Shown piece by piece: positions 11,017-55,997 of a DNA stretch of 64,000 bases. Where the stretch lies: contig CAVYHJ010000002.1 in the NCBI GenBank assembly GCA_963768165.1, forward strand, positions 195,283 to 259,282. The letters are read 5' to 3'. The translations under genes were made by a program, and so were the position numbers. The DNA is from an uncultured bacterium (GTDB taxonomy: Bacteria; UBP4; UBA4092). How positions within the stretch are numbered: the stretch's first letter is position 1; each line of letters opens with the position of its first letter. The notes under the pieces were generated by a model, which ran no database searches, was not told the DNA's origin, and was given only the letters and a program-made list of their open reading frames with translations.

Positions 11017-11237
11017 ATAAAAAACGCTCGAAAGGCACGTTCCCTTCGAGCGGTTATTGCCACCACTAAAAGCGCTATGTTAGAAACGTCCACTGTCTCT
11101 CCCACGCCTGCGGGGTTAGCTGTTGGGTTCGGGTTGAAAAGTAACCCTGCGCGTTTCCGCGATTCACCCCCTGACATCGGTTCCCCCGTCTCTTGCGAGC
11201 TCGGCGATCTTTCGTGGGATTCTTATTCCAAATTTAA
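11017..11237 (-). promoter_or_regulatory. Candidate c-di-AMP (ydaO/kimA-type) riboswitch leader, copy A, with intrinsic terminator
   Basis: Conserved core shared with three other copies (RNA sense ...GGGGGAACC...GGGGUGAAUC-CGCG-GAAA-CGCG-CAGGGUUACUUUUCAACCCGAACCC..CAGCUAACC..GCAGGCGUGGG); 3' hairpin CGCUCGAAGG/CUUUCGAGCG plus U-run at 11017-11055; extended -10 TGATATAAT at 11245-11253; start codon 10996 about 20 nt past the U-run. Confidence 0.6.
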
Positions 11238-14195: not shown

Positions 14196-14894
14196 TTATT
14201 CTTTGGCTCCGGCATCTTTCAGGAGTTTTACGATGTCGTCATATTTCTTATATGTCGCTATTGATAAGGCAGTTTTACCATCATTGGTTTTCGTATTGAT
14301 ATTGGCTCCTTTATCTAGCAAGGCTTTCATGGTATCCATACGACCACCACGAACCGCCCACATCAAAGCAGTATAACCAATAACATCTTTCGCATTGACC
14401 TCCGCGCCTTTCGCTAATAAGGCTTGTACGGTCTCGTTATGTCCTACAACTGCCGCATTCATCAAGGCGGTCATACCGTACTTGTTTTTCGCATTGACCT
14501 CCGCACCTTTCGCTAATAAAGCGTTCACGATATTCGTTTGGCCCCACCATGCCGCTGACATCAAGGCGGTGTTACCAAACTTATTTTTTACATTAACATC
14601 GGCTCCTTTCGCCAATAAAGCTTGCACGGTATCTGTATGACCATTTTCTTCTGCTAACATCAAAGCGGACACACCTGTACTATCTTTCACATTCGGGTTC
14701 ATCCCCGCATCCAAATATAATTTTATAACATCGGTTTTGCTATGTCCTGCACATTTAAAAAACTCATCTTCGCTATAGGTAATCTTCATTTGCGCCAGTT
14801 CATTACGCGCTTCTTGCGGGGTTTTGGCGAAGGAAGGGAATACCAGGAACAAAAATAGTACAAGAGAGAGACACGGTAATGGTTTCAATTTCAT
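14196..14894 (-). CDS. Secreted ankyrin-repeat protein
   Basis: Signal peptide then repeated TALM.AA..GH...V..LL.KGA.VNAK units; AAGGAG RBS. Confidence 0.8.
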   Translation of the reverse strand: MKLKPLPCLSLVLFLFLVFPSFAKTPQEARNELAQMKITYSEDEFFKCAGHSKTDVIKLYLDAGMNPNVKDSTGVSALMLAEENGHTDTVQALLAKGADVNVKNKFGNTALMSAAWWGQTNIVNALLAKGAEVNAKNKYGMTALMNAAVVGHNETVQALLAKGAEVNAKDVIGYTALMWAVRGGRMDTMKALLDKGANINTKTNDGKTALSIATYKKYDDIVKLLKDAGAKE

Positions 14895-14976: not shown

Positions 14977-15783
14977 TTATTCTTTCGCCCCGGCACTCTT
15001 GAGGAGTTTTACGACGTCGGGATGGTTCTCTTTTGCCGCGTCCATCAAAGCAGTATGACCTTCATTATCTTTCGCATTGACTTGAGCACCTTTTTTTAAT
15101 AAGACTTTAACGGTCTCTGCATGACCTGTGACTGCCGCAAACATCAAGGCAGTCCTGCCATTATTGATTTTCGCATTGACTTCAGCACCTTCTTTTAATA
15201 AGACTTGCACAGTCTCCGTATGACCATTCACTGCCGCTAATATCAATGCGGTCACACCACCCTTGTTTTTTGCATTGACATCCGCCCCTTTTGCTAATAA
15301 GGTTTGAACGATCTTCGTATAACCAAACTCTGCCGCAAGCATCAAGGCGTTTTTACCTTGTTTAGTTATCGCATCAACTTTTGCCCCTTTTGCTAAAAGG
15401 GCTTGCAACGTATCTGTACGACCACTAAGTGCCGCCCATGTCAATGGGGTCCAGTCATCGTTTGATTTCGCATTAATATCAGCACCTTTCGCCAATAAGG
15501 CTTGTAGAGTCTCAATATTATTATGAAATGCCGCAGCCATCAAGGGGGTTCGACCATTATCGTCTTTCAAATTCGGATTCATCCCAGCATCTAAAAACAA
15601 TCTCACAGCGTCAGTTTTGCCGTGTTGTGCACAAAAGAGAAATTCATCTTCGCTATAGGTTATTTTCATTTGCGCCAGTTCATTGCGCGCTTCTTGCGGG
15701 GTTTTGGCGAAGGAGGGGAATACCAGAAACGAAAATAGTAAAAGAGAGAGGCTTAATAATGGATTGAATTTCATCATACTTGG
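14977..15783 (-). CDS. Secreted ankyrin-repeat protein (paralog)
   Basis: Start placed at internal MMKFNPLLSL (AAGGAG RBS) rather than the ORF-track start; same N-terminal FLVFPSFAKTPQEARNELAQMKITYSEDEF as neighbour; at least six ankyrin units. Confidence 0.8.
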   Translation of the reverse strand, partial: PSMMKFNPLLSLSLLLFSFLVFPSFAKTPQEARNELAQMKITYSEDEFLFCAQHGKTDAVRLFLDAGMNPNLKDDNGRTPLMAAAFHNNIETLQALLAKGADINAKSNDDWTPLTWAALSGRTDTLQALLAKGAKVDAITKQGKNALMLAAEFGYTKIVQTLLAKGADVNAKNKGGVTALILAAVNGHTETVQVLLKEGAEVNAKINNGRTALMFAAVTGHAETVKVLLKKGAQVNAKDNEGHTALMDAAKENHPDVVKLLKSAGAKE

Positions 15784-16064
15784 TACTCCTTTTTCCCAAA
15801 GAATGAGAGAGTTTTTTATTACCGATAGCATACTCCCTTCTAGAACCCAGAGTCAAGTTAAAGAGTGGAAGGAACGGGAGAAACGGAGAATGGGCGAGAG
15901 AGCGAAATAGAATCAGGAATGAAGGAAAAGGTCAAATATGTTACCTGCTCCAGCAAAGAGATACCCATTATTTTGCCTATAAATAGACAGGTAGAAAAGA
16001 GTTGAAAAGATAACAGATTGTGCTATAATTTTTCTTAGTCAAAAACGGTCGGGAGGACACTTCG

Positions 16065-17670
16065 ATGAAAACACGTAAACGCATTATTGTTATTTCACAT
16101 TTTCTGTTAGGACTCGCTACGATGATTCTGATTTTACCCGGGAGCGGGTTCGGGAACCAATTGGTGTATTCCACGTATCTGGGCGGGACGAGCGATCATG
16201 CGGAATCATTAGGGATTGCGATTGATACGGCTGGGAATATCTATATTACCGGATTTACCAAAGCACCGAATTTTCCCGTCACAGCATCCGGCTACGATAC
16301 AGTGTATGAAGGCGCGGGAGAGCATGTGTTTGTAAGCAAAATCAATCCGAGTTTATCGGGTGTCTCGTCTTTAGTCTATTCCACTTTTCTTGGCGGAGAG
16401 GGATATGAACTTGCCCGGGGCATTGCGGTGGATAGCGCGGGGAATATCTATGTAACCGGCTTTACCAACTCCTCTACCTTTCCAGTAACCGCGAATGCCT
16501 ACGATACAGGATTACATGGCGCGGAGTACGCGGCTTATCTCAGCGAAATCAATCCGAGTTTATCGGGTGCTTCTTCGTTGGTGTATTCCACGTATCTGGG
16601 TTCGGGTTACGCGGGAGGCTATGGCATTGCCCTTGGTAAATCCGGCAATGCCTATATTACCGGCTCTCAAAGCTATTACACGTTCCCGGTAACTGCCAAT
16701 GCCGTGGATACTGTGGGTACCGGCAATGATGTCGCTTTTATCTCTGAATTTAATACCAGTTTATCGGGTGTCTCCTCCCTGGTCTATTCGACTTTGCTGG
16801 GACCCAAGGACACTTTCGCCGCATATGCCAATGCCATCGCCGTAGATACTTCAGGGAAAATTTACGTAACCGGATTGACGGACTCGTCCACCTTACTTAC
16901 CACAACCAATGCGTTTAATACGACTTTTCATGGGTTACAGGACACGTTTGTGAGTGTGATAAATCCTAATGTGGCGGGATTGGCGGGGTTGGTGTATTCG
17001 ACCCTGCTGGGAGGAAGCCCCGCTAATTACGAGGATTCCGGCAATGGAATTACGGTAGACAAAGCGGGTATTGCCTATGTCACCGGTGTAACAGAAGACA
17101 CAATCTTCCCGGTGACCGCCATTGCCTATGACACCGTATTCAAAGGAAACGGAAATGTATTCCTGTGCAAAATCAATCCGTCCTTATCGGGGGTCTCGTC
17201 TCTGGTCTATTCGACATTATTAGGCGGCAGTGGGGGCGAGGGAGGGGAAGCCATTGCCATTGATACTGCCGAGAAAGTCTATGTGACAGGGTACACATTT
17301 CCCGGTCACGGCAGACGGGTATGATACGACATTCAACGGAACTCAGGATGTTTTTGTGACTGTATTGAATCCCAACTCATTGGGAACCTCCGCTTTGATT
17401 TATTCGACCTTTCTGGGAGGCAATAGCTATAGCGATGGACAGGGAATTGCTCAAGACAATAATAACAAAGTGTATGTCACAGGATATACCTATGCATCGA
17501 ATTTCCCCATCACCTCCAATGCTGTCAGCACTTCTTTACGAGGGACTGCAGGCAGTAACTATGATGCCTTTGCCACGGTGCTGAATATCACTCCTCCGGT
17601 AGCGGTCAATGATTGGATGCTGTATGCAGAGCCGGAAGTGGCGCAAGGGAGTGAGTCGGGAAAGAGGTAA
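16065..17670 (+). pseudogene. SBBP (beta-propeller) repeat protein disrupted by frameshift/deletion
   Basis: Repeating LVYSTYLGG...IYVTGFT...FPVTA.AYDT units; frame 0 stops at 17324 (VTGYTFPGHGRRV*) while the repeat continues in frame +1 from 17299 (FPVTADGYDTTFNG...). Confidence 0.55.
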
Positions 17671-17700
17671 AAAGCGGTTTGTTATCGAGGGAATAGTATC

Positions 17701-18039
17701 TTACTTTTTATCTGCTTCAATTAATGAATTTGTGTTTATCGACTCGAAAGCAAAAATGATTTTAAAAAGTATTATATAAAGAATAAGCATGAGAAAAATA
17801 ATCGGTAGCCTCTGATCAAAATAGGTTAGGTGATACGCACCGCATAAAGACATAGTGATAATATAAAGAGTAAACGATATTAATCCATTTATCAAACCGT
17901 ACATGAACCTTTTTTTTGCCATAAATCCTTTATGACATTTAGGGCATTTCAAGGTATAGTTGTACAAAGAGAAAAGCACATTCCCAAAAGTTATTACGTG
18001 TCCACATGCTGGACAGGGTCTGGAAAATTTCATGAACAA
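17701..18039 (-). CDS. Zinc-ribbon (CPxCG...CPKCHK) membrane protein
   Basis: N-terminal MKFSRPCPACGH..CPKCHK then two TM segments; paralog at 21703..22083. Confidence 0.45.
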   Translation of the reverse strand: MFMKFSRPCPACGHVITFGNVLFSLYNYTLKCPKCHKGFMAKKRFMYGLINGLISFTLYIITMSLCGAYHLTYFDQRLPIIFLMLILYIILFKIIFAFESINTNSLIEADKK

Positions 18040-18562
18040 TCAATCTTTCTCACTGAATTGTCTTTATTATAACATATAGGTAGGTTATTTTGATTTAAAC
18101 GAATAGTTCCGAATAGCCAGAGAACTTACACTGATAAAAGATTCCAGCAGGTTTTTTTAACTATATCGGAAATGAGTATATTTCTCTTTCCCGATAAAGA
18201 GAAATTGCCATACATTGCGGTTAATAACAGTCAGTTTTCCCTTAATTAAAAACGGTTTTTAAGAATCAGAATTTATTTTTCTGTGACAAATCATTTAACA
18301 AAATACTGAAACGAGTCATGGTTGACAAAGAAAAATACTTACTATATATTGTAGTCCTGGCTAGGATTAATTAGTAACTGTTGAAAATCCTGTTTCTATA
18401 GATGAACCAATTAAAACTTGTGTATGCTCATGCAATACTTTTTCTCCAAAAGAAAAAAGTAAACCATTTATTTCATTGGAGATAAGTATTTGCCATTTGG
18501 TAAATATTATTCTATTATCATTAGTATATACCTAGGATTTATATGGTTTGTCTATAGCTTAA

Positions 18563-20090
18563 ATGCCAACATTTCTAGCAAGGAATATTCCGGTAAGTAC
18601 AAAATATAAAAATCACTTAGAAAAGGACCATAATATATTTATTCCGTTGTTGTTCTTTGTGATTTATTGTTTCAGTTTTATATTTCACGATCCAATCACA
18701 CACATTTATTATGGGTATTGGCAATTATTACCTTTGGATGCTTTACTTCAACATCCCATTAGTAGTTTACTCCTGATTCACTCACAACCTCCCCTGCTTA
18801 ATCTACTGTTTTATATCGTACATATTCCATCCATGATATGGGAAATCAATCCTCAATTCACCGCAACGCTTTTATTTTTCTTTATCTCCCTATTCTCGAT
18901 ATATGTCTATTACAACCTGGTTTTTCTTATCACAAAAAATAAAGTATGTGGCATGGCCGTTCTTTCCCTCATTCTACTCAATCCCGGTTTCTCCTTTTTT
19001 CAGGGGTATTTCTTTTATCAGAATATGGACTTTTTAGTCAGTGGTATCCTGGTCTATCAAGCCTGTCTGTGGGCACTAAAACCGGATTTATACCGATTTG
19101 GAGGCGTGGTCATAGTGTATACTACAATGGTTTATTTACGGAGTTTATGGCATCCTCTTTTCGGATTTTTTATCGTTCTCTTTTTACCCCTAATGATTTA
19201 TCCAAAAATGAATAAAAAAATAATCCAAAAGCATTGGATCTATGGCAGTCTCCTTTTTATTTTATTAATCAGTCCTTGGATGTTAAAAAACCTTATTTTG
19301 TTTAACACCCCTTCTTTTTCTTCCTGGCTGGGTGGAAACCTTGGTGGTCAACGATTTTCGAAATTCATTCTTTCCAATAATCCAGCCGATGCTTTTGATA
19401 ACTCTTTGGTTAAACAATATTATTCCGACTGGCAATTAAAGATTTTAATGAATTATCCTGCTACTGCAGACATCGAAAAAAATTTAATTTCTGCCCCCCC
19501 CCTACATGAAGAGAAATTTAAATCACTACGCCCTTCCTGCAATCTGTAATGAGGATATGAAAGAGCGAATATCCTATTATAGAGAACACCCCTACCAATA
19601 TATACAGAGAATCTATTCAAATTTTGTCTACATGGATCTTCCCCCATATATTAATTCGTATACACAGGATTCAACAACAGGTTGGTATGGCGGTTTGCAA
19701 CGGATGGGAACTTATGGATATTGGTATGATGTCATATTTTATGGAAGTTGGTTTAGAAATTTTATAGTCATACATACCCTGGATTTTGTATACAGACCCA
19801 GCCTGTTTATCTTCATACTGATCCTGCTGTTATTACTCAGCATTCGGTTGGCAATCAATCAAAAGACAGAACCTATCCAGAGAATATTTTATTTCTTGTC
19901 ATCGTTAATGTTTCTCTGGTTTCTTGCCATGATTTTACTGATCGATGGAAAGGAAAGTAACCGAATGAGATGGGATATGGAAGGGATCTATCTATCAATC
20001 CTGGTTGAACGATGTTACGCCCTCTATCAATCTTTGAGGATACATAAACCGAATAATAAAAAACGGGTCCAAGTCAAACGCAGTAAATAA
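18563..20090 (+). pseudogene. Polytopic membrane protein split by frameshift at a 9-C homopolymer
   Basis: ORFs 18563..19549 and 19506..20090 overlap in different frames at the C9 tract 19494-19502; removing one C fuses them (...ISAPPYMKRNLNHY...). Confidence 0.5.
19494..19502. repeat. Poly-C homopolymer tract (9 nt)
   Basis: CCCCCCCCC at the junction of the two overlapping ORFs. Confidence 0.9.
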
Positions 20091-20205
20091 CAACATTTAT
20101 TTATTCAACTAACCTATACATGAATGTTAATCAAGTTAATGGTAGACATGAGGTTGTGATTCGCTGGTGAGATGTATCGGGAATGACACACACAAGAATA
20201 AAAGG

Positions 20206-20262
20206 TTACTTGGCTTTGGCGGAGTGGTTGTAGATAGCCAGGGAGATGACGCTGAGAAAGGG
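20206..20262 (-). pseudogene. 3'-terminal remnant of a kdpD-like gene
   Basis: Minus strand encodes DPFLSVISLAIYNHSAKAK*, matching the C-terminus of the KdpD-like gene at 23023 (FLSVISLAIYNYSAKTK*); no open upstream frame. Confidence 0.4.
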
Positions 20263-20307
20263 GTCGGAAAATACGCCAAGAGCGCTCCTTCTCGACGCAT
20301 AATTCAA

Positions 20308-20418
20308 GTAGTAACGAGAGATTCTTCACTTCGTAAAAAACACTACGCTCAGAATGGCAGATAGGGGGACGATGGGAAGAAGGCGTCGGGAAAGAGATAA
20401 AAGGCGGGTTGTTATCGA
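20308..20418. repeat. Composite repeat (R3+R4), copy 1
   Basis: GAGATTCTTCACTTCGTAAAAAACACTACGCTCAGAATGGCA ... GTCGGGAAAGAGATAAAAGGCGGGTTGTTATCGA; related copies at 21586-21695, 22951-23002, 17661-17695 and inverted at 7294-7333. Confidence 0.55.
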
Positions 20419-20426
20419 GTCACAGT

Positions 20427-20906
20427 TCAGGATTTCTTGATTAATTTGAAATCCAGTACAGAAAGGAAATAGATGAATGAAGCATAGACTAGAATTACAA
20501 CACACGTCAAAATATATTCCCTTTGCTCCGGTAAATTTTTTATCACTCGCACATCTTTATTCGCCGAAATCAGACTGAATAATTTCGCTATTTGCAAAAA
20601 TAATAATACCGATAGCATAGAAAGCGTCAGAGTTTTAGCCCCAGGTCTTTTGCGTAAGATTCCAATACAACCAATAATTAAACACAGGGTTAAACCAAAT
20701 TCTAGAACGACTCCAATAATTGTTACTCGCAAAAACTGCGCATTACTTACGCCCGCAAACCCAAAAATTAAATAGACCAACGCAAAGCCCATTATTAACA
20801 GAAAACATACTCCCAAAGTGAGTAGAAGTATAACCCAAGGACGATAATGCTTGTTAACAAAAGATTTCATCTTTTTCTTCCCACGACGTAATCTTATATC
20901 TAACAA
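20427..20906 (-). CDS. Hypothetical polytopic membrane protein
   Basis: 159 aa with four hydrophobic segments. Confidence 0.4.
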   Translation of the reverse strand: MLDIRLRRGKKKMKSFVNKHYRPWVILLLTLGVCFLLIMGFALVYLIFGFAGVSNAQFLRVTIIGVVLEFGLTLCLIIGCIGILRKRPGAKTLTLSMLSVLLFLQIAKLFSLISANKDVRVIKNLPEQREYILTCVVILVYASFIYFLSVLDFKLIKKS

Positions 20907-21039
20907 GTTTCGTTGTCAATCACCTCCAAATTATAGAGGCGAAGTTTACCCTGCGCCTACGGTTTAGTTGAGAAAAAACGCGAGAAGGCGTCGGGAAAGG
21001 CTTGAAAAGTGAGACGTTCCCGACTCAGGAGAAATACGT

Positions 21040-21261
21040 TTACAGAAGTTTAAGGAATTCTTCCACGGTTAAACCGGAATTGCGGATGAGCGCTCGCAGA
21101 GTCCCTACTGAAAGTTCCTTGTGCTGGGGAATCGAGAGATTGACCCGGATTCCGGGTTTGACGAGAACCAGATGACTACCGACCTGACCCATGACCTGCC
21201 ACCCGGCTTTTTGAAAAGCCTTGGCGGCTTCCCTCCCAGAAATATTGGCCAGTCTCCCCAT
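21040..21261 (-). CDS. hicA: Type II toxin-antitoxin system HicA-family toxin
   Basis: 73 aa; SGREAAKAFQKAGWQ...GSH...GTLRALIRNSGL matches the HicA pattern. Confidence 0.7.
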   Translation of the reverse strand: MGRLANISGREAAKAFQKAGWQVMGQVGSHLVLVKPGIRVNLSIPQHKELSVGTLRALIRNSGLTVEEFLKLL

Positions 21262-21265
21262 TGGA

Positions 21266-21481
21266 TCAAACAGCGACTACAACCGGAGAGTGACCTTTGG
21301 CGGGTTTGCGTTTTCGCAGGGCTTTTTGGTCTTCCGCCCATAGCCAAGCGGTGATGGCTTCTTTTACATTTTCCAAGGCTTCTTTTTCGTCTTTACCTTG
21401 GGAAACGCAACCGGGGAGTGCGGGAACCTCCGCGACAATCCACCCGTCTTCCGCTTTCTCTAATAAAACGTGAAACATCAT
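21266..21481 (-). CDS. hicB: Type II toxin-antitoxin system HicB-family antitoxin (UPF0150-like)
   Basis: 71 aa; MMFHVLLEKAEDGWIVAEVPALPGCVSQGKDEKEALENVKEAI matches the small HicB pattern; 4-nt gap to hicA. Confidence 0.7.
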   Translation of the reverse strand: MMFHVLLEKAEDGWIVAEVPALPGCVSQGKDEKEALENVKEAITAWLWAEDQKALRKRKPAKGHSPVVVAV

Positions 21482-21585
21482 AATCGTTTGTCCTTTATTT
21501 TTTCCTCAATGACTCTAATATACCATAGAAATAGTTTCAAAGGCAGTCGAGTCGGGAGACTCGATCTAAAAAAGATTTACTTCAG

Positions 21586-21695
21586 GTAGAACACAGGGAT
21601 TCTTCGCTCCGTAAAAAGCACTACGCTCAGAATGACAAATTTGGAGGCGGTGGGGATTGAGTCGGGGAAGAGATAAGAAACGGGTTGTTGCTGAT
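21586..21695. repeat. Composite repeat (R3+R4), copy 2
   Basis: GGTAGAACACAGGGATTCTTCGCTCCGTAAAAAGCACTACGCTCAGAATGACA...GTCGGGGAAGAGATAAGAAACGGGTTGTTG. Confidence 0.55.
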
Positions 21696-21702
21696 TAGGA
21701 TT

Positions 21703-22083
21703 TTATTCTTTTGGGTTATCCTTGAACAGGTTATATAACAAGGGGTAAGCTGGTTTCCATTTTGTTTCTATTAATGTAACGTTGTCAAAGATGAATAAAG
21801 TTAAGATGAATCTGTAAACTATCTCAAAAACAAGTATAATTGGAATTAATAAAATAATGACCTCAAGCGGGTTTAGAATATTCACAAATTGCAATGTAAA
21901 TAAAACAATTAATATAATGACTAGACTTATTGCTTCTACTATTATAATCCCTTTACGCCAAGCTTGCGCCCAGTAGACTTTATGACATTTTGGGCATTGC
22001 AAATGATATCTATATAGTGTGGGAAGCATTTCCCAATTAGAAACACTATGTCCACATGCCGGACAGGGTCTGGAAAATTTCAT
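21703..22083 (-). CDS. Zinc-ribbon membrane protein (paralog of 17701..18039)
   Basis: MKFSRPCPACGH...CPKCHK followed by two TM segments. Confidence 0.45.
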   Translation of the reverse strand: MKFSRPCPACGHSVSNWEMLPTLYRYHLQCPKCHKVYWAQAWRKGIIIVEAISLVIILIVLFTLQFVNILNPLEVIILLIPIILVFEIVYRFILTLFIFDNVTLIETKWKPAYPLLYNLFKDNPKE

Positions 22084-22326
22084 ATCAAATTCCTTTTCAT
22101 TTCCAAACGCAGATTATAGCATTAGTGGAGGGCGGCGGGAATAGTAAAGTGTCGAGTCGGGAGACTCGACCTATCGGATAGAGGAATGGTCAAAACCAAT
22201 TTCTTACGAATATCATAAGTCGTATTGATTTAAACAAAAAGTAAGCGTAATATAATGGGGTTCAGACCATGGAAATTATCATTCACCCACGATATGATAC
22301 CGGGGATTTATTCAGGAGGGCAGGTC

Positions 22327-22956
22327 ATGAAACGCTTGATTTGTTTGTTAACAATCACTCTTAGTATAGGTTTTGTAACGCAATTATGTTGGGGTTACTC
22401 CTCATCGGAATTGATAATTCCGCCATCCGCCAGAGTACCCGGGTCTGTATCCAGCCAAGATACTTCCGCAAATACGCCCCCAATACGAAACTATGTTAGC
22501 GAACTTCCATCTTCTTTTAAAAAGGATGCCAATGAAATTTATAATTTTTCCGTTAAAAGTCTGGAAGGTAAATATACCCACATGGGGGACTATAAAGGGA
22601 AAGTCATCGTGGTCAATTTCTGGGAATCCACCTGTTATCCAAGTTATCTGGAATTGTTCAAAATCGAAAGCTTGGCTAATTTTGACAAGAGAAAAGAAGT
22701 GGTCATTATATGTGTCGCCGAGGATGACGAGAAACTCCTACTTCATTATAAGGACAAAATCCCCCAGCTTTCATTCCCCATCTTTACTTATAACCAGTTT
22801 GATATACCGGATGCGCTGGAACATGAATATGTCCCCACCACGTTTATCATCAACCAGAACGGTAAAATTATACTGGCAGAATCCGGTATCATTGAAGGTT
22901 TCCAACTATGGGAAGAAATCCAAAAACTCCTTCCCCACAAACCAAACACCAAGTAA
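22327..22956 (+). CDS. Thioredoxin-fold (TlpA/redoxin-like) protein with single-Cys site
   Basis: Start set at MKRLICLL (AGGAGGG RBS); VVNFWESTCYPS aligns with the WxxWCxxC redoxin site but the second Cys is Ser. Confidence 0.5.
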   Translation: MKRLICLLTITLSIGFVTQLCWGYSSSELIIPPSARVPGSVSSQDTSANTPPIRNYVSELPSSFKKDANEIYNFSVKSLEGKYTHMGDYKGKVIVVNFWESTCYPSYLELFKIESLANFDKRKEVVIICVAEDDEKLLLHYKDKIPQLSFPIFTYNQFDIPDALEHEYVPTTFIINQNGKIILAESGIIEGFQLWEEIQKLLPHKPNTK

Positions 22957-23022
22957 CGAGAGATTCTTCGCTCCGTAAAGAGCACTACGCTCAGAATGAC
23001 AATTTTGGGGGTGGTGGGGATG

Positions 23023-25002
23023 CTATTTGGTTTTGGCGGAGTAGTTGTAGATAGCCAGCGAGATGACGCTGAGGAAGGATTCGAGGAGATAGTCCTGTTC
23101 TTGCGAGAGGAACTGAGAATCCTGCGGACGACCGATAGCGAGGACGCCGACAATATCGTTTTTGACGTTCAAGGGGATAAAGCGCCACGCGGAAGAGGAG
23201 AGAGTCTGGGTCTCCCGACCGGCAAGTTCCTTGTGCTCAAATACCCATAAAGCGATAGTCATTTCGTGACTATTAAATTTCACAGAGTCACCGGTTTGGG
23301 AGCGGATAGTGAGTTTACCGGTTTTGTCGGGAAGCAGGAGCGCCGAGTCACAGGCGAACATTTCGGAAATGTCCGAACTGATTCTATCGAGCAAATCAAT
23401 AAACCCGATAGCGTGATACAAATCCTGGCTGAATTCATTGAGCAACGAAATGTACCGCACCTGGGTGCGGGAAGATTCCGATTGCCGTTTGAGACGGTCG
23501 GCAAGGAGACTTGTCACAATGCCGACTAAAAACATGACAAAGAACGTGGGCAGATAACTCATATCGCTGACTGTAAAAGTGAAAATCGGCGGAACAAAAA
23601 AGAAATCGAAACAAAGCACGCTCAACAGGGATGCGACCAGACCGCCGATGAGTCCGCGATAAATCCCTGACAGAATCACGGGAATGATGAATAAAAGGGC
23701 AACATTCGTGAGACCGATGTAAGAATGAAGAGGAAAGCAAATGAGAGTGGTTGCGCCCACGATGGCAAGGCTCATAAGATAGGAACGCCAATCAAGAACG
23801 AGATTGCTTCGTCGCTGCGCTCCTCGCAATGACAAAGGTTGTGGTGACGATTCGCCACCGACTACCAAGACTTGAATAGGATTGCTTTTATCAATAATCT
23901 GGTTCAAGAGTGACCCGCGTATCATTCTACGAAACCGGGATTGGCCGGAGAAACCAACAATAATCAACGAGGCATTTTTTGAACGGGCAAACCGCACGAC
24001 TTCATCGGCAGGCTGGTTGCTGGAAAGACGGACAATTTTCCCGCCCAATTCTTTGGCGAGATTAAAATTCTTCTCCAACTGTTTAGCCCTTTGCGGGTCG
24101 AGCGTAGTTTGCACCTGTGGTTCGACATAGACCGCAAACCAATCGGCTTTTAAATCTTCCGCCAACCGATGTGCCACGCGGACGGGTTGTTCGGACAAGG
24201 GACTCGGACTGATACATACCATAATCCGGGTGCCGACGGGCCAGGGACCTTTAATGCCCTGCAATTGCATGTAAGAGAGCATGGCATCGTCCACGTGCTT
24301 GGCGGTATAGCGCAGGGCTAATTCGCGGAGCGCGAGCAAAGTGCCTTCTTTAAAATAATTCTGGGAGGCGAGTTTCGCCATATTGGCCATGTAGACTTTA
24401 CCTTCGGTTAAGCGCTGGAGAAGTTCTTCCACGGGAAGGTCTACGAGAGCAATTTTATCCGCCAGTTCCAGAATGCGGTCGGGGACGGTTTCCTTCACTT
24501 CAATTTTGGTAATTTGATAAATAATGTCATTGACACTTTCAATATGCTGGATGTTCAAGGTGGTGTAGACACTGATACCGTTATTGAGGAGTTCTTCAAT
24601 ATCTTGAAACCGTTTTACATGGCGTGACCCGGGGACATTGGTATGCGCCAATTCATCCACCAGAACATATTTGGGTTTGCGCTTAAGAATATAGTCCAGG
24701 TTAAACTCATCCAAGACCATACCCTGATATTCTATTTTCAGGAGGGGAGAACGTTCCAATCCAAAAATCAACTGTTCGGTTTCGGCACGACCATGGGTTT
24801 CGACAATGCCGATAATGATATCTTCGCCCTTTTGTTTGATCGCCTGGGCTTCCTGCAACATGCGGTAGGTCTTGCCGACACCGGCCACGTACCCTAAGAA
24901 TATTTTAAGAAATCCCCGGGTGCGATGCTGCTGTTCCTGTTCTTTATTAAACAGGTTCAGCAGTTGATCCGGATCGGGGCGATTTTGATTCTGTTCAACC
25001 AT
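23023..25002 (-). CDS. kdpD: KdpD sensor protein lacking histidine-kinase domains
   Basis: N-terminal P-loop GVGKTY, USP-like region, 4-TM block and GAF-like C-terminus; ends at 659 aa with no H-box or HATPase motifs; directly downstream of kdpC. Confidence 0.75.
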   Translation of the reverse strand: MVEQNQNRPDPDQLLNLFNKEQEQQHRTRGFLKIFLGYVAGVGKTYRMLQEAQAIKQKGEDIIIGIVETHGRAETEQLIFGLERSPLLKIEYQGMVLDEFNLDYILKRKPKYVLVDELAHTNVPGSRHVKRFQDIEELLNNGISVYTTLNIQHIESVNDIIYQITKIEVKETVPDRILELADKIALVDLPVEELLQRLTEGKVYMANMAKLASQNYFKEGTLLALRELALRYTAKHVDDAMLSYMQLQGIKGPWPVGTRIMVCISPSPLSEQPVRVAHRLAEDLKADWFAVYVEPQVQTTLDPQRAKQLEKNFNLAKELGGKIVRLSSNQPADEVVRFARSKNASLIIVGFSGQSRFRRMIRGSLLNQIIDKSNPIQVLVVGGESSPQPLSLRGAQRRSNLVLDWRSYLMSLAIVGATTLICFPLHSYIGLTNVALLFIIPVILSGIYRGLIGGLVASLLSVLCFDFFFVPPIFTFTVSDMSYLPTFFVMFLVGIVTSLLADRLKRQSESSRTQVRYISLLNEFSQDLYHAIGFIDLLDRISSDISEMFACDSALLLPDKTGKLTIRSQTGDSVKFNSHEMTIALWVFEHKELAGRETQTLSSSAWRFIPLNVKNDIVGVLAIGRPQDSQFLSQEQDYLLESFLSVISLAIYNYSAKTK

Positions 25003-29737: not shown

Positions 29738-29896
29738 TAAATAAAAAACCCACTCACTCTTCCACGCCTACGAGGTTAGCTGACGGGCTCGGGTTGAAAA
29801 GTAACCCTACGCTTTCGCGATTAGCCCCAACTTCCGGTTCCCCCGTATCTTTCGAATTCGGCGAACTTAAGTGGTAATACTGCTATATTTTTCTAC
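29738..29896 (-). promoter_or_regulatory. Candidate c-di-AMP (ydaO/kimA-type) riboswitch leader, copy B
   Basis: Same conserved core as copies A, C, D; internal GNRA-capped hairpin CGC-GAAA-GCG; 3' tail GAGUGAGUGGGUUUUUUAU. Confidence 0.6.
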
Positions 29897-35427: not shown

Positions 35428-35590
35428 TCAATAAAAAACCCACTCACTCTTCCACGCCTGCGAGGTTAGCTGACGGGCTCGGGTTGAAAAGTAACCCTAC
35501 ACCTTGCGGTGATTCGCCCCAACTTTCGGTTCCCCCGCCTTTTTCAAGCTCGGCGAACTTAAGTGGTACTATTAAAATTCTATGTTATTT
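35428..35590 (-). promoter_or_regulatory. Candidate c-di-AMP (ydaO/kimA-type) riboswitch leader, copy C
   Basis: Conserved core; internal hairpin CACC-GCAA-GGUG covaries with GCGC-GCAA-GCGC (D), CGC-GAAA-GCG (B) and CGCG-GAAA-CGCG (A). Confidence 0.6.
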
Positions 35591-38097: not shown

Positions 38098-38261
38098 TAA
38101 ATAAAAAACCCACTCACTCTTCCACGCCTGCGAGGTTAGCTGACGGGCTCGGGTTGAAAAGTAACCCGGCGCTTGCGCGCTTCGCCCCTACTTCTTGGTT
38201 CCCCCGCCTCTTACGAGCTCGGCGAACTTAAGTGGTGCTAAGTTCTTGATTTAATTTTCTA
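38098..38261 (-). promoter_or_regulatory. Candidate c-di-AMP (ydaO/kimA-type) riboswitch leader, copy D
   Basis: Conserved core with GCGC-GCAA-GCGC hairpin; 3' tail GAGUGAGUGGGUUUUUUAU; M23 peptidase gene downstream. Confidence 0.6.
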
Positions 38262-46695: not shown

Positions 46696-48714
46696 TTATT
46701 GTAATTCCAGCAGTCCCTTTTTTGCCCCCGCATATTCCGGATTGAAAAACAAGACTCGATTGTAAGATTCTTTCGCCAGATCCTTTTTCCCCTGAGTTTG
46801 GTATAACAATCCCAATCGGTAATGGGAGGAAATATTTTCGGGTTCTAACTGTACCGACTCTTTCCATTCACTTTCTGCTTTCCCAAATTCTTTATTGGTG
46901 AAATAATAAATTCCCTGATAGTAATGGTAATCCGATAAACGCTCGAACGCCCATGCCCTCCAAAAATCTTTTTGGGAAATATCTGACGGCGTATACCGGT
47001 AAACATAATTTATTTTTGGCGGTAGATATGGATAAGGATGTTCAGGGACGGCATTTTTGACAGGTACACTTGTCACATGATAAAGCAACCCTTCCTGAGT
47101 TACTGATAACGACGGGTTAATTCGAAGATTATATTTCTCATAAAAATAACAGGGACGCTGTGATAGATTCTGTTTGAAAAATTGGAACATTTGCCAATCC
47201 ACAAACGTGAATGCCTGGTTGGGATTTTTGGGGACTTGAGAATTGTTGAAGGTGGGGATTTGTAATTTTGGATCATGGATTCTGTTTAACCCTTCATAAT
47301 ACCATCCCAGCGCCAGTGACGTTCGCGAAAGTACGGTGACATCCGCACGATAATGTTCCACTTGCTGCAAATACCAAACTGGGAATACATGTAAATCATC
47401 GTCACCGATAAATAAAGCCTTCGGTTCCATAGTATCCAAAATATCTTTTCCAAAATCATACGCGAGATAATAATTACGCTCATTATGTTTTAAGAATTGG
47501 GTTACAAAGCCCGTCAAAACAAAAAAAACGCTAATGGCATATGCTAGAAAATATCTATTGGGTTTGTTATTGATAATTGTATATCCAATTCTCGTAATCC
47601 CTATCCCCCCCCATATCCCATAAATTAAGTATGCAGGAATAAAAAAAACGTCCCGGGTTTCTAAAGAGAGTAGTTGAGTCATGGGATGATTATTGACAGC
47701 ACAGAAAAATAACCACACGACTATAGCAATCCCTCCCAATAGAATGGCGGAGGATTTATGATTCTGTCCAAGCCAAGATAACCCGAATAATGCGCATAAT
47801 CCCAAAATAATTCCGTAAATCAATCCGGAGATGGTTACGGATTGCCCGGTCAACAAAACCCATGCGGTCGTGCCCAACTGTTCTTCCAGCAAGCCCCATG
47901 ACCGTCTCCATTCAAACGGCGGGTAATCGCTTCGTAATAGAATTTCTCTGAATCCTTTCCATGTATCCGCTTTTCCCCATTCGATCATTCCCAAATGCGG
48001 TGTTACCAACGGCAGTAATAAATATACCGAAAATCCTAATAAAGCCAGGGAAATACCAATAAGTAAAGGTTTAAGTGAAAATGTATTTTTGAATTGCCCC
48101 TGCAATAACAAAAAAAGAATTACTACCGGAACATAAAGAACGGAGGTATGATGAATCCCCAGGCTGAACGACCACAGGAATACCCCCGCGTACCAATATC
48201 GCCGTTCCCGGGTCCGGGCGTAAAGCAATACAAATAAAATGATAAATGCCGTAAAGAACGCGCTCAACGGATGAACTTTTGCCACCAACGCCTGCGACCA
48301 AAAGGTCCCGGAAAAAGCAAATGTCAACGCACCGGATATGGCTCCGATGTGTGCCATTGTACTTGACTGTAAATCCTTTTCCGTTAAACAGTACCATTGC
48401 AAAAGAAGAAAAATAATGACATACGTTACGCCCACAGAAGCCGCCGCAAAGAATACCGATAATAAGTTCACTCTATAGCCGATATCCGTTCCAAAAGGCA
48501 GAAAAGTAAACAATTTCGCCAACAGAATATATGTCGGATAACCGGGTGGGTGCGCGAATCGCAAACCGTAGGATGCCGTGATAAAATCCCCGCTATCTCC
48601 GAAGGTCACGGTCGGTGCGACAGTATAAAGATACACCGCCCCGCTAATCAAAAAAGTCAAAATGAAATATGTAATAACTTTTTTTTGATTTACCATAAAT
48701 TTCTTGGAATTCAA
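46696..48714 (-). CDS. DUF2723-like polytopic membrane protein with C-terminal TPR repeats
   Basis: N-terminal YLYTVAPTVTFGDSGDF motif, many TM segments, C-terminal TPR-like helices. Confidence 0.6.
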   Translation of the reverse strand: MNSKKFMVNQKKVITYFILTFLISGAVYLYTVAPTVTFGDSGDFITASYGLRFAHPPGYPTYILLAKLFTFLPFGTDIGYRVNLLSVFFAAASVGVTYVIIFLLLQWYCLTEKDLQSSTMAHIGAISGALTFAFSGTFWSQALVAKVHPLSAFFTAFIILFVLLYARTRERRYWYAGVFLWSFSLGIHHTSVLYVPVVILFLLLQGQFKNTFSLKPLLIGISLALLGFSVYLLLPLVTPHLGMIEWGKADTWKGFREILLRSDYPPFEWRRSWGLLEEQLGTTAWVLLTGQSVTISGLIYGIILGLCALFGLSWLGQNHKSSAILLGGIAIVVWLFFCAVNNHPMTQLLSLETRDVFFIPAYLIYGIWGGIGITRIGYTIINNKPNRYFLAYAISVFFVLTGFVTQFLKHNERNYYLAYDFGKDILDTMEPKALFIGDDDLHVFPVWYLQQVEHYRADVTVLSRTSLALGWYYEGLNRIHDPKLQIPTFNNSQVPKNPNQAFTFVDWQMFQFFKQNLSQRPCYFYEKYNLRINPSLSVTQEGLLYHVTSVPVKNAVPEHPYPYLPPKINYVYRYTPSDISQKDFWRAWAFERLSDYHYYQGIYYFTNKEFGKAESEWKESVQLEPENISSHYRLGLLYQTQGKKDLAKESYNRVLFFNPEYAGAKKGLLELQ

Positions 48715-48951: not shown

Positions 48952-50637
48952 TTAATATTTCTTCCAGTCAGCTATATCTACAGTCGATGGTGTCAGTATC
49001 AAATGGGTAATGGATAAGGGAGGAAGATTGTAAGTGAAAGAATTCCCGGTTACTGAAATGACGGATGGTCCAATAATGGAGGCTCCACTGTTTGAGGCTA
49101 CCGAATAGATGGTCGCACTATTGAACGTGGTTTGACTGCTAATTGTAAAATTTCCATTAATGGTCTGGGTCATATTTTTATTGAGGACCATGATATGCAA
49201 TTGTGATTGATTACTGGACATCACAGAGGCATAGATGGAGGTATCGGTAGTATCGTTCATCAACGCCTGCACATGGGTATCGCCAAAGGTGGAATTATGT
49301 CCGTCATAATTCCGGTACATCTTATAGGCTAGTGAATTATATTCATCCCCATTCCCTAAAGACCACAAACAACCCGCAAAGACACCATATTTCCCGAATA
49401 TTCCCAATACATCTGCTTCCGCTATTCCCCCTGTGATATCCCATCCTCCACCATAGTTATATTCTGAGATCGAAAGTTGGGTTCCGGGATTATAGATATT
49501 GATACAAGATTGAATCGCTGGAATATAAGGACAAAATGGTGCCCAGTAAGTTGTTTGACCTTGTCCTATCCAACTGGGTTGAATATAATTGCTATCCCAT
49601 AATTCACGGGGAGCTTGTAACCGGGCTAATTTATCTGCATTCGTGTCATTACCGGAATTGGTACTATTTATCCGATGAGTACCTGTGACCTCTGAATAGT
49701 CATGAATATCGAGCACATCCAGTAATCTAAATCCGTAAGCTGTAGAAGCCTGATACAGTTTATCCAAATAATAGCTAAGAAACCAGCCATAACTTCCTTG
49801 AACAGTGCTCCAATCGGGTGCATTTTGCAAAGTCAGAAAACCTTCAAAACCATAGTCTACCGGGCCGAACATCAGAGCCGTTGAATCCACCGACTTGATG
49901 GCGGAAGAACAGGCAATTGTCTTTTGGACTAATTCCGTGCATTGGGTTGCCGTGGGATGAATTTCCTTATGTGTGGAGGGCCATAGACTGGGTTCATTAT
50001 CCAAGTCGTAGAAGGGAACTCCACCAGTTACCTGGCTTAATGTACTGAAAGAGCTTAGGCTGCCAGCACCCGTCCCAAACCTGTTCACCAGATAGTTGAC
50101 CTGTTCATCCATATACACGGTAGAACCATTATCATACTTTGTCTCTTTCGGGTTCGTAGTAAAGGCGGAACCTTTATGAAATGCTATGGGATTAAATCTC
50201 GATGAAGAGAATGATGCCGTACTGACAACACCTGTATCATCTGCTGAAACATAACCGGCCATCTGGATTGTTAATAGGTTCTGTGCCGTGAATTTCGATC
50301 GGGTATCTAAGACATACACCGTATTCGTAGTACACGGAGACACCGTACCAATGGAAACGGAAACCCCGCCTGGTAGCATATAATCATCGCTTTCGAATAT
50401 ATAATCATTTCCTGCATTGGACCAATTCGTGACCCAGTTATATGCCGTCAAACGGTTTCCACCCATTCGAAACAAAGTAAAATTCTCCCCCCCTACCAAA
50501 TCCTGATTGGTTCCGTAAATATAGGGGCTGATTGGTTGCTGGTCGGTTTGGGGTGAAATCGTGTAGTTGACGTTTATTTGTGCGAAGGCGGAAATGGTTA
50601 GGTTGAGTAAGACGAGAAACACGAGCTTTTTTTGCAT
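48952..50637 (-). CDS. Secreted glycoside hydrolase, GH44-like (short paralog)
   Basis: Signal peptide; FRMGGNRLTAYNW, DLDNEPSLW and SEYNYGGGWDITGG motifs resemble GH44 from memory; 561 aa. Confidence 0.55.
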   Translation of the reverse strand: MQKKLVFLVLLNLTISAFAQINVNYTISPQTDQQPISPYIYGTNQDLVGGENFTLFRMGGNRLTAYNWVTNWSNAGNDYIFESDDYMLPGGVSVSIGTVSPCTTNTVYVLDTRSKFTAQNLLTIQMAGYVSADDTGVVSTASFSSSRFNPIAFHKGSAFTTNPKETKYDNGSTVYMDEQVNYLVNRFGTGAGSLSSFSTLSQVTGGVPFYDLDNEPSLWPSTHKEIHPTATQCTELVQKTIACSSAIKSVDSTALMFGPVDYGFEGFLTLQNAPDWSTVQGSYGWFLSYYLDKLYQASTAYGFRLLDVLDIHDYSEVTGTHRINSTNSGNDTNADKLARLQAPRELWDSNYIQPSWIGQGQTTYWAPFCPYIPAIQSCINIYNPGTQLSISEYNYGGGWDITGGIAEADVLGIFGKYGVFAGCLWSLGNGDEYNSLAYKMYRNYDGHNSTFGDTHVQALMNDTTDTSIYASVMSSNQSQLHIMVLNKNMTQTINGNFTISSQTTFNSATIYSVASNSGASIIGPSVISVTGNSFTYNLPPLSITHLILTPSTVDIADWKKY

Positions 50638-50860: not shown

Positions 50861-53287
50861 TTAATATTTTTCCCAGTCATCTATATCTACAGTCGATGGT
50901 GTCAGTATCAAATGGGTTATGGATAAGGGAGGGAGATTGTAGGTGAAAGAATTCCCGGTTACTGGAATAACGGACGGTCCGATGATGGATGTTCCACTGC
51001 TTGAGGCTACCGAATAAACGGTGGCACTATTGAACGTAGTGAGACTGCTAATCGTAAAATTTCCCTGGATGGACGATGTCCAATTTTTATTCAGCACCAT
51101 GATATGCAATTGCGATTGATTACTGGACATTACAGAGGCATAGATGGAACTATCTACCGTATCGTTCATCAACGCCTGCACATGAGTATCGCCAAAGGTG
51201 GAATTTTTACCGTCATAGTTCCGATACATTCGAAAAGCCAAGGAAATAAAATTATCTACCGATCCCCAATAACTTGCCGCATAAACCCCGTATTTCCCAC
51301 AAATTCCAAAAAAGTCCGCTTGGGCAATTCCCCCCGTAATATCCCAACTGCCGCCAAAACTATATTCCGAAAATGATGTTTTTGTACCGGGATAGTAATT
51401 ATAAATGGAAGTTTGAATGGTCGGAATAAGCGGTAAATAGGCATCGTAATATTGTCCAATCCAGCTATTCTCAACATAATTCTTATCCCATAATGTCCGC
51501 GGCGCTTGTAGCCGGACGGTCTTATCTGAATACGTATCGGAGTCGGAATTTGTCCCCGTAATGGAATTTCCCTCAGAGCCAGCAGCGGAAGAATAATAAT
51601 GCAGATCCAACACATCCAACAATCGTTCTCCTATAGTCACAGAAGCTTTATGCACTGTATCCAAATAGTACGATAAAAACCAATCCGGTGAATACCCGTT
51701 ATCTACATTGGCCCAATCCGGAGCACCTTGCAAAGTCAGATAACCTTCAAAACCATATTCCACCGGGCCAAACACCATGGCCGTCGAATCCACCGACTTG
51801 ATGGCAGAAGAACAGGCTATCGTCTTCTGAACCAGTTCCGTACAACAGGTTGCTGTGGGATGAATTTCCTTATGTGTTCCCGACCAAATCGAGGGTTCAT
51901 TATCCAAGTCATAGAAGGGAATTCCACCGGTTACCTGACTTAATGTACTGAAAGAGCTTAGACTGCTGCCACCCGTACCAAACCTATTCACCAGATAGTT
52001 CACTTGTTCATCCATATACACCGTAGCCCCATCATCATAACTTGTCTCTGTCGGTTTCGTGGTAAAGGCGGAACCTTTATGAAACGCTATCGGGTTAAAT
52101 CTCCACGATTGAAATGACGTCGTACTGACGTCCCCCGTATCATCTGCCGAAACATACCCAGCCATCTGGATCGTTAATAGGTTCTGTGCCGTGTAATGGG
52201 AGCGGGTATCTAAGACATACACCGTGTTGGTCGTACACGGATTCGCGTTAAAACTGCCAGAAACACCGCTGGGATACATACCATCATCGCTCTCAAAATA
52301 CCAGTCACTTCCTGCATTGGACCAATTAGTGACCCAGTTATAGGCGGACAAACGGTTTCCGCCCATGCGAAATAAAGTAAAGTTCTCTCCCCCTACCAAA
52401 GGCCCGAAATTAATTCCATAAATATAGGGACTAATGGCTTGTTGTTCCAATTGAGGGGAGATAGAGTAATTGATTGTGATTTGAGACAGGGTAATGGATA
52501 AAGCTTGGGTGGCTGTGGATCCCACTGAATCAGTTACTTTCACAGTAAAGTCATAAACACCTAATGAAGTCGGAGTTCCTGAAATAGTGCCTGAACTATA
52601 GAAAGTCAACCCGGGAGGTAATGTTCCCGTCGTTGTAGTCCAAGTATAGGGAGGAGTCCCATTCGCTGCTTGAAGGATCTGATTATAAGGAAAATTAATT
52701 GTTCCATTGGGTAAACTGGAGGTCGTGATAATTAAAGAAGGTGTTGTCGTAGATAGGGAGGGGCCAAAAATAACATTGTCAATTTTAAAAGTATAATTTC
52801 CGGTATTGGTCCCGATAAGAATTTGAAGGCCAATCCGATCCATCGGAGTTCCAATCCCGGTGTCATTTCCATATAATATGCTTGACTGCCAAGAGTTGGA
52901 TAAAGTCAACCATGATCCATTAGCCCAGGTCCATCCAGAACCTTGTTGCGAATATACTTGTGCATTGGGGGAAGATGCAGAATTGGTACATGCAACATAC
53001 ATACTCAAGATAGTATCAGTTCCCAATGTAAATGGTGGATTCGAGTAATAGACATCTATATTGGCACTGGTAGATGAAGTTTTGTTTACATAGACATAAA
53101 GACAGTCCTCACCGGAATATCCACCGGGTCCCCAACCGATAGTAAAAGAACCATAGTTACCACTTTCCCAGGCAGCTACCCAACCGGTGGTATTACTCGA
53201 TTGGGAAAAGAAATCTGAATATGATGCAATTACAGGGCTGAGAATGGTTAGGGAAAGTAGAAGAGTTGAAATAAGAAGTTTTTTCAT
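50861..53287 (-). CDS. Secreted GH44-like hydrolase with N-terminal extra and Ig-like domains
   Basis: 808 aa; N-terminal about 270 aa with PPYTWTTTTGTLPPGL...GTISGTP Ig-like segment, then the same catalytic region as 48952..50637. Confidence 0.55.
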   Translation of the reverse strand: MKKLLISTLLLSLTILSPVIASYSDFFSQSSNTTGWVAAWESGNYGSFTIGWGPGGYSGEDCLYVYVNKTSSTSANIDVYYSNPPFTLGTDTILSMYVACTNSASSPNAQVYSQQGSGWTWANGSWLTLSNSWQSSILYGNDTGIGTPMDRIGLQILIGTNTGNYTFKIDNVIFGPSLSTTTPSLIITTSSLPNGTINFPYNQILQAANGTPPYTWTTTTGTLPPGLTFYSSGTISGTPTSLGVYDFTVKVTDSVGSTATQALSITLSQITINYSISPQLEQQAISPYIYGINFGPLVGGENFTLFRMGGNRLSAYNWVTNWSNAGSDWYFESDDGMYPSGVSGSFNANPCTTNTVYVLDTRSHYTAQNLLTIQMAGYVSADDTGDVSTTSFQSWRFNPIAFHKGSAFTTKPTETSYDDGATVYMDEQVNYLVNRFGTGGSSLSSFSTLSQVTGGIPFYDLDNEPSIWSGTHKEIHPTATCCTELVQKTIACSSAIKSVDSTAMVFGPVEYGFEGYLTLQGAPDWANVDNGYSPDWFLSYYLDTVHKASVTIGERLLDVLDLHYYSSAAGSEGNSITGTNSDSDTYSDKTVRLQAPRTLWDKNYVENSWIGQYYDAYLPLIPTIQTSIYNYYPGTKTSFSEYSFGGSWDITGGIAQADFFGICGKYGVYAASYWGSVDNFISLAFRMYRNYDGKNSTFGDTHVQALMNDTVDSSIYASVMSSNQSQLHIMVLNKNWTSSIQGNFTISSLTTFNSATVYSVASSSGTSIIGPSVIPVTGNSFTYNLPPLSITHLILTPSTVDIDDWEKY

Positions 53288-55908: not shown

Positions 55909-55997
55909 CGGAAGGACTATCCTTTCAAATAAAAATATATATGATACATTAACTATATTTACCACAATCGGTGAGGCTATGTCAATGTATAATAATC

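Follow-up and report, generated by a model that had tools for sequence, protein, structure and literature searches.

An 11-nt deletion splits the gene of a seven-bladed SBBP β-propeller between two reading frames and has probably inactivated it

The window, i.e. the whole 64-kb stretch of DNA that was analyzed, carries at 16065–17670 of its + strand one SBBP β-propeller repeat gene, rather than two genes, whose coding sequence is divided between two reading frames. ORF1 (16065–17324, 419 aa) ends at a TGA stop codon (17322–17324) in both the ORF list and the raw sequence; the C-terminus of its protein reads ...YVTGYTFPGHGRRV (also given as ...KVYVTGYTFPGHGRRV). The +1 frame translated from position 17299 reads FPVTADGYDTTFNGTQDVFVTVLNPNSLGTSALIYSTFLGG... 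(FPVTADGYDTT...), continues through SGKR to a stop codon at 17668–17670, and finishes in ...NDWMLYAEPEVAQGSESGKR. The two frames overlap by 34 nt. Public gene calls of the 3′ fragment hold just a GTG-started 104-aa piece (17356–17670), with an AGGA located 7 nt upstream of the GTG. The profile of the Pfam SBBP family (PF06739; gathering cut-off, 20.5 bits) scores above its cut-off on both pieces, with 117.1 bits in four stretches for ORF1 and 30.4 bits for the +1-frame piece. These scores support the assignment to SBBP repeat proteins made in an earlier note on this DNA; that note also described the repeat as resuming in the +1 frame from 17299, and its coordinates and quoted peptides are exact. 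A search of the 64-kb window for further SBBP genes found none besides this one. The features of the gene are as follows.

16002–16029, + strand: promoter-like site TTGAAA-16 nt-TG-TATAAT with an extended −10 element, near-consensus (11/12 matches); a putative promoter, by consensus match only
16051–16057, + strand: Shine-Dalgarno-like GGGAGGA, 7 nt upstream of the ATG at 16065, read off the sequence
16065–16154, + strand: predicted Sec-type signal peptide (MKTRKR, hydrophobic core, ...GSGFG) without a lipobox cysteine, by inspection
16065–17324, + strand: ORF1, the 5′ fragment (blades 1–5, the first three strands of blade 6, then FPGHGRRV, eight residues out of frame)
16161–16370, + strand: blade 1 (repeat parsing, DNA repeat families D1–D8, four strands per blade in the AlphaFold2 model)
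16371–16577, + strand: blade 2 (repeat parsing, D1–D8, AlphaFold2 strands)
16578–16778, + strand: blade 3 (repeat parsing, D1–D8, AlphaFold2 strands)
16779–16988, + strand: blade 4 (repeat parsing, D1–D8, AlphaFold2 strands)
16989–17201, + strand: blade 5 (repeat parsing, D1–D8, AlphaFold2 strands)
17202–17394, + strand: blade 6, interrupted (frame 0 until 17297, +1 frame from 17299)
17297–17299, + strand: deletion junction, 11 nt absent, without a homopolymer or simple repeat
17299–17670, + strand: 3′ fragment in the +1 frame (remainder of blade 6, blade 7, tail and stop)
17395–17583, + strand: blade 7
17584–17667, + strand: native C-terminal tail, followed by the stop codon at 17668–17670
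17599–17625, + strand: conserved C-terminal motif VAVNDWMLY, modeled as a short helix with low confidence

Joined at the junction, the frames encode a seven-bladed protein of 534 aa. A leader of 32 residues (MKTRKR, hydrophobic core, ...GSGFGNQ), with no cysteine in residues 1–33 and hence no lipobox Cys, precedes seven units that each begin with [LI][VI]YST and carry the family signature LVYSTYLGG...GIAVD..GN.YVTG.T.S..FP.T...DAFV.K in units of ~69 aa; repeat parsing of the joined protein gives lengths of 70, 69, 67, 70, 71, 64, and 91 aa for units 1–7, the last of which also counts the tail. An AlphaFold2 model of the joined protein, built with a 69-sequence alignment, is a seven-bladed propeller with four-stranded blades (pLDDT 90.6, pTM 0.89); residues 1–27, in the signal peptide region, have pLDDT values below 50, and the final 27 residues are of low confidence, with a short helix over DWML. 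Only the conceptually joined sequence gives a closed propeller of seven blades; the ORF as encoded halts after 5¾ blades.

The surroundings of the gene are uneven in GC content (about 0.49 in the SBBP gene, 0.29–0.37 just downstream, and 0.42 as the mean of the window). On the other strand, upstream of the gene, lie two tandem genes of secreted ankyrin-repeat proteins (14196–14894 and 14977–15831) whose products have nearly identical N-terminal regions (common ...FLVFPSFAKTPQEARNELAQMKITYSEDEF), so that the pair looks like a recent local duplication; the contig of the Logan assembly discussed below breaks inside the second of them. Downstream of the SBBP gene are orphan membrane proteins and a HicA toxin/HicB antitoxin pair (about 21040–21481, − strand; L001 5303–5744), which is consistent with a flexible, island-like stretch. 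Elsewhere in the 64 kb, four c-di-AMP riboswitches (RF00379, 92–101 bits; 11090–11216, 29750–29873, 35440–35565, and 38110–38234, all on the − strand) lie upstream of genes for a 776-aa AA_permease_2 protein, a P-II-like protein, and an M23 peptidase, as well as of two complete kdpABC operons; two further P-II-like genes follow the peptidase gene, and all of these elements together make up a dense potassium/c-di-AMP island. Used as a taxonomic marker, KdpB had matches of just 70–73%, to a UBP4 MAG and to a Methanobacterium MAG. Beside the first Kdp operon, a KdpD-like sensor (23023–25002, − strand) contains KdpD, Usp, DUF4118, and GAF domains without HisKA or HATPase and aligns to positions 2–642 of a KdpD model that is 895 positions long; the adjoining ORF showed no kinase remnant, and the ORF that overlaps the end of this gene (22791–23168, − strand) has no Pfam match and was rejected as part of a split gene. 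The overlapping ORFs 45591/46051 were likewise rejected, being two separate pilin-like genes. Two paralogs of ~810–830 aa matching a GH44 EpsB-like model (50861–53287 and 53479–55965, − strand) are followed by a DDE transposase gene (56015–57274, − strand), and a third GH44-domain gene (Pfam Glyco_hydro_44) lies at 48952–50637.

The position and size of the lesion in the SBBP gene can be read from its own repeats. Four residues separate the Y[VI]TG.T and FP.T motifs in units 1–5 and 7, whereas none do so in unit 6; this linker is exactly four residues long in 591 of the 655 blades of 119 homologs. The comparison with intact SBBP relatives suggested in the earlier note, made here with six full-length homologs, gives a clean four-column gap at the blade 6 junction and nowhere else. 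At the DNA level, blade-to-blade spacings measured on one repeat family are 207, 201, 210, and 213 nt, all divisible by three, followed by 193 nt, which is 204 − 11. The register distance from ‘ATTGC..GGnTAyAC’ to ‘TTCCCGGT’ measures 13 nt in blades 2, 3, and 5 vs. 2 nt in blade 6; therefore, the stretch between 17296 and 17299 has lost 11 nt, and a single T at 17298 is left of the 12 linker nucleotides. In the AlphaFold2 model, the deletion site falls directly after strand 3 of blade 6, and the residues absent are those of the strand-3/strand-4 loop that links YVTGYT to FPVT. The frame-shifting deletion with a loss of about four residues that the earlier note had noticed is thus sharpened to 11 nt in this loop, and the reading frame of the gene is interrupted there (17297–17299) and then closed by the TGA at 17322.

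Beyond the junction, the coding sequence is preserved. A +1 downstream frame open for at least 123 codons arose in just 13 of 20,000 shuffles, i.e. it is beyond chance; off-frame open runs within the intact part of the gene do not exceed 67 codons; and the 3′ fragment retains the consensus blade residues. The interval 17251–17350 contains no run of at least four G/C or at least five A/T, and Tandem Repeats Finder (TRF) applied to the gene reported no tandem repeat at the junction, its sole match being a 9-nt, 2.3-copy repeat at 16972–16992. We rejected a phase-variable contingency gene driven by a simple-sequence repeat, as the junction has neither a homopolymer nor a short tandem repeat.

The following + strand gene (18563–20090, 0.9 kb downstream) is also split. 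Its two ORFs (18563–19549, 328 aa; 19506–20090, 194 aa) encode multi-transmembrane products without a Pfam match and change frame in a C9 tract (19494–19502); the GC content of the gene is about 33%. At C8 or C11, i.e. with one C fewer or two more, a stop-free ORF of 508/509 aa results, which is collinear across the junction with an intact homolog, P0123 (508 aa, 38% identity, 96% coverage). Three origins of the C9 split are conceivable: an error in homopolymer length, a fixed frameshift, or phase variation of the poly-C tract.

The earlier note had further proposed that the SBBP gene has an abrupt end that lacks the usual anchor domain at the C-terminus, and here our analysis disagrees. The intact homologs P0041, P0111, P0043, P0015, and P0099 consist of a signal peptide, seven blades, and a short tail with V-x-V-(E/N)-D-W-M-L-Y followed by 0–27 polar residues; because these intact homologs of 507–543 aa carry the same build and a homologous tail, the end of the window gene is its native C-terminus. 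The tails compare as follows.

Window gene: ...PPVAVNDWMLYAEPEVAQGSESGKR, then the stop codon
P0041: ...QVPVEDWMLYSIDQ...
P0111: ...NVAVEDWDLYGMEGSDERN
P0043: ...AVDGKLWMLYE
P0015: ...SVDQFWNVYK
P0099: a related tail

The motif in the form V-x-V-(E/N/D)-D-W-M-L-Y is common to the window gene, P0004, P0007, P0015, P0041, P0043, P0099, P0111, and P0129. A regular expression for the tail matched 8 of 273 SBBP proteins; every match falls within the final 30 residues, and none is internal. The P0043 tail is a variant spotted by eye outside this count. The motif also terminates other architectures, namely P0004 and P0007 (propeller plus PKD) and P0129 (1169 aa, with about twice as many blade matches), and many longer homologs bear extra Ig-like, PKD, or T9SS domains, which are not universal. 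Searches for sorting or anchor domains (T9SS Por_Secre_tail, PEP-CTERM-type, LPXTG) gave no Pfam or NCBIfam match on the tail of the window protein, which is polar and acidic and has no hydrophobic helix; nor did sorting-domain searches match the tails of P0007 (Pfam and NCBIfam) or of P0041, P0004, and P0111 (NCBIfam). A role of the tail as a velcro strand was rejected, since the tail also follows PKD domains and is of low confidence in the model.

Attempts to follow the tail beyond these proteins returned little. The motif is absent from the other ORFs of the window; 85 loci came up in a metagenome scan with back-translated VEDWM(L/F)Y, and the 80 in-frame loci analyzed all belong to unrelated families or short spurious ORFs, with no SBBP-type tail among them; in 1.84 billion representatives, matches to a profile of blade 7 plus tail were dominated by giant multi-propeller proteins, because scores sum over blades; and a tail-only profile gave 26 candidates, with one match at E = 7.9. 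It is a doubtful proposal that the VxV(E/N)DWMLY tail may serve as a C-terminal tag for sorting or anchoring that has not been described before and, separately, that the two adjacent broken genes may be switchable OFF states of a surface-protein module.

Four accounts of the split SBBP gene have to be weighed, of which a real inactivation, i.e. a recent frameshift that left a pseudogene or null allele, is in our judgment likely the correct one. The gene might instead be intact in the organism, with the gap produced by read errors, by polishing, or by mis-assembly of a repetitive gene. It is made of seven similar blades, the deposited contig of 1.26 Mb may point to long-read data, and the frameshift of the adjoining gene at a C9 homopolymer, a classic error site, casts some doubt on local accuracy. 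However, an 11-nt loss outside any repeat or homopolymer is an untypical read error; the blades have at most 23 identical nucleotides in common, too few for a k-mer mis-join, and a mis-join would add or remove whole blades. The sequence is reproduced at 100% identity, junction included and without a break, by a Logan contig of run ERR11523654 that spans window positions 15738–22178 (6.4 kb); this agreement rules out an assembler-specific error, and the 419-aa and 104-aa products each occur once in a collection of 15 billion proteins, from the NCBI/ENA assembly and from Logan. The Logan contig and the deposited assembly probably derive from the same reads, so that a systematic read error is formally possible. 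Elsewhere in the window, def and a TMEM260-like gene, which contain G8 or C8 runs, are full-length, as are KdpA/B, and the assembly is therefore not riddled with indels. We consider an artifact unlikely.

The remaining accounts take the deletion as real and would have the locus still make a working product. Two functional genes, i.e. a secreted truncated propeller of 419 aa (possibly self-associating) and/or the GTG-started 104-aa piece, would fit with the intact promoter, Shine-Dalgarno sequence, and signal peptide of ORF1, with the AGGA before GTG 17356, with the confidently modeled blades of the truncated product (pLDDT 88.8), and with the calling of both pieces as genes by public callers. 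Against this, no homolog stops after blade 5¾, and the lone match of similar size, P0016 (418 aa), lacks a signal peptide and starts mid-repeat, as a fragment would; ORF1 closes with eight residues read out of frame; the 104-aa piece begins mid-blade and lacks a signal peptide; and the model of the truncated product retains sevenfold geometry without closing. Superposition of this product works best with the seven-bladed CylK (TMq 0.64), and six-bladed propellers fit it poorly (about 0.35); this pattern suggests an open, unclosed arc rather than a re-closed ring. That the fragments work as two genes is accordingly hard to credit. Least probable of all, and scarcely believable, is a programmed +1 ribosomal frameshift or other recoding that yields the full-length protein. 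The 34-nt overlap and the fully preserved downstream frame would suit it; yet the junction ACA-T-TTC-CCG (ACA-U-UUC in RNA) is no known slippery or stall site, RNA folding of 17285–17420 is no better than that of shuffles (z = +0.50), homologs are encoded in a single frame, and a recoded product would still be without the near-invariant four-residue linker. A prfB-like programmed +1 frameshift in particular was rejected: a slippery or stall codon, a stimulatory element, and conservation in homologs are all missing.

Frameshift inactivation, the account we favor, would have run as follows. The ancestral product was probably a Sec-exported, single-domain, seven-bladed SBBP β-propeller of ~538 aa with a short conserved C-terminal tail; its molecular role was presumably extracellular ligand or glycan binding, by analogy with other secreted propellers. 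An 11-bp deletion would have taken out the four-residue linker between β-strand 3 (‘VYVTGYT’) and ‘FPVT’ of blade 6 and shifted the frame, such that translation from the intact promoter and ribosome-binding site should halt eight codons on, at TGA 17322. The predicted product is a secreted 5¾-blade fragment unable to close the ring; the final 1¼ blades and the tail would stay untranslated or, at best, be made as a 104-aa piece without a leader. Lacking the linker would not by itself be obviously lethal to the fold, because AlphaFold2 models the joined protein well without the four residues, and the damage would come from the frameshift. From the models of the truncated product, we infer that function has been lost.

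The lesion looks recent. The promoter, the Shine-Dalgarno sequence, and the downstream frame are all intact, and since the rest of the gene is undecayed, the event would be recent or the sequence a strain-level null allele in the population. No close ortholog with the ancestral 11 nt was found, either in the homolog search or in a scan of genome contigs with the joined protein; the best intact match is 44–47% identical, and the listed homologs of about 500 to 934 aa are each read in a single frame.

The case is one of routine, ordinary gene inactivation in a disrupted member of the known SBBP family, and it adds one more case in which a secreted propeller protein was lost recently; its sole mildly new element is the conserved tail at the C-terminus of the short SBBP subgroup. 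It also bears on annotation hygiene: the public 419-aa and 104-aa ‘proteins’ are two pieces of one inactivated SBBP gene, the neighboring 328-aa and 194-aa pair are likewise pieces of one gene, and both pairs should be flagged as pseudogene/frameshifted and excluded from family alignments.

The SBBP family is very large, with 94,729 representatives at 50% identity that match the blade profile, and SBBP proteins are among the predicted outer-membrane or extracellular proteins of Leptospira (PMC2387172). The LipL53-family SBBP lipoproteins of Leptospira (NCBIfam NF047494) give weak profile matches via the common SBBP blades; a LipL53-type identity was rejected, as the 3′ fragment, the only part of the window gene covered by the NCBIfam scan, scores 14 bits and the homologs score 60–120 bits vs. 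a cut-off of 400, and as the leader has no lipobox Cys. On the JGI contig of P0015, a TMEM260/PMT_2-like glycosyltransferase gene and nucleotide-sugar enzyme genes come after a tandem pair of short SBBP genes (498 and 507 aa); the window itself contains, at 46696–48714 (− strand), an intact gene with a C8 tract for a TMEM260-like O-mannosyltransferase with TPR repeats. A possible link of SBBP proteins to O-glycosylation may be read from such gene neighborhoods; a conserved SBBP-glycosyltransferase synteny was rejected, as the SBBP-SBBP-TMEM260-like order occurs on one contig and is lacking on those of P0043 and P0123.

Compared with its relatives, the window gene is frameshifted and lacks the N-terminal PF25778 and the C-terminal Ig, PKD, and T9SS modules of most relatives of 700–930 aa; it falls instead in a short SBBP subgroup of about 500–545 aa with a distinct C-terminal tail. 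P0041 (543 aa), P0111 (519 aa), P0043 (513 aa), P0015 (507 aa), and P0099 (525 aa) match it end to end, with 96–98% query coverage and 41–49% identity; all are intact and have the four-residue linker in blade 6, and none is a close ortholog. Among known structures, the best match to the joined model is the β-propeller of the Friedel–Crafts alkylating enzyme CylK (PDB 7fh6, 7ron; Foldseek E 1.6e-23 to 3.5e-22, TMq 0.63–0.66), which likewise has seven blades. Identity is just 18–19%, the CylK chain has 633–653 residues vs. 534 aa, and the TM score normalized by CylK length is 0.53–0.54, so that part of CylK is without a counterpart in the SBBP protein; judged from overall fold similarity of the model, the likeness to CylK is confined to the fold. 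At the sequence level, the PDB gives matches only to NHL-type six-bladed propellers (the PknD sensor domain, 1rwi, and the designed Pizza proteins), at one blade each with E values of 1e-5 to 2e-11; these have six blades of about 42 aa and reach a TMq of just 0.28–0.36 to the SBBP models.
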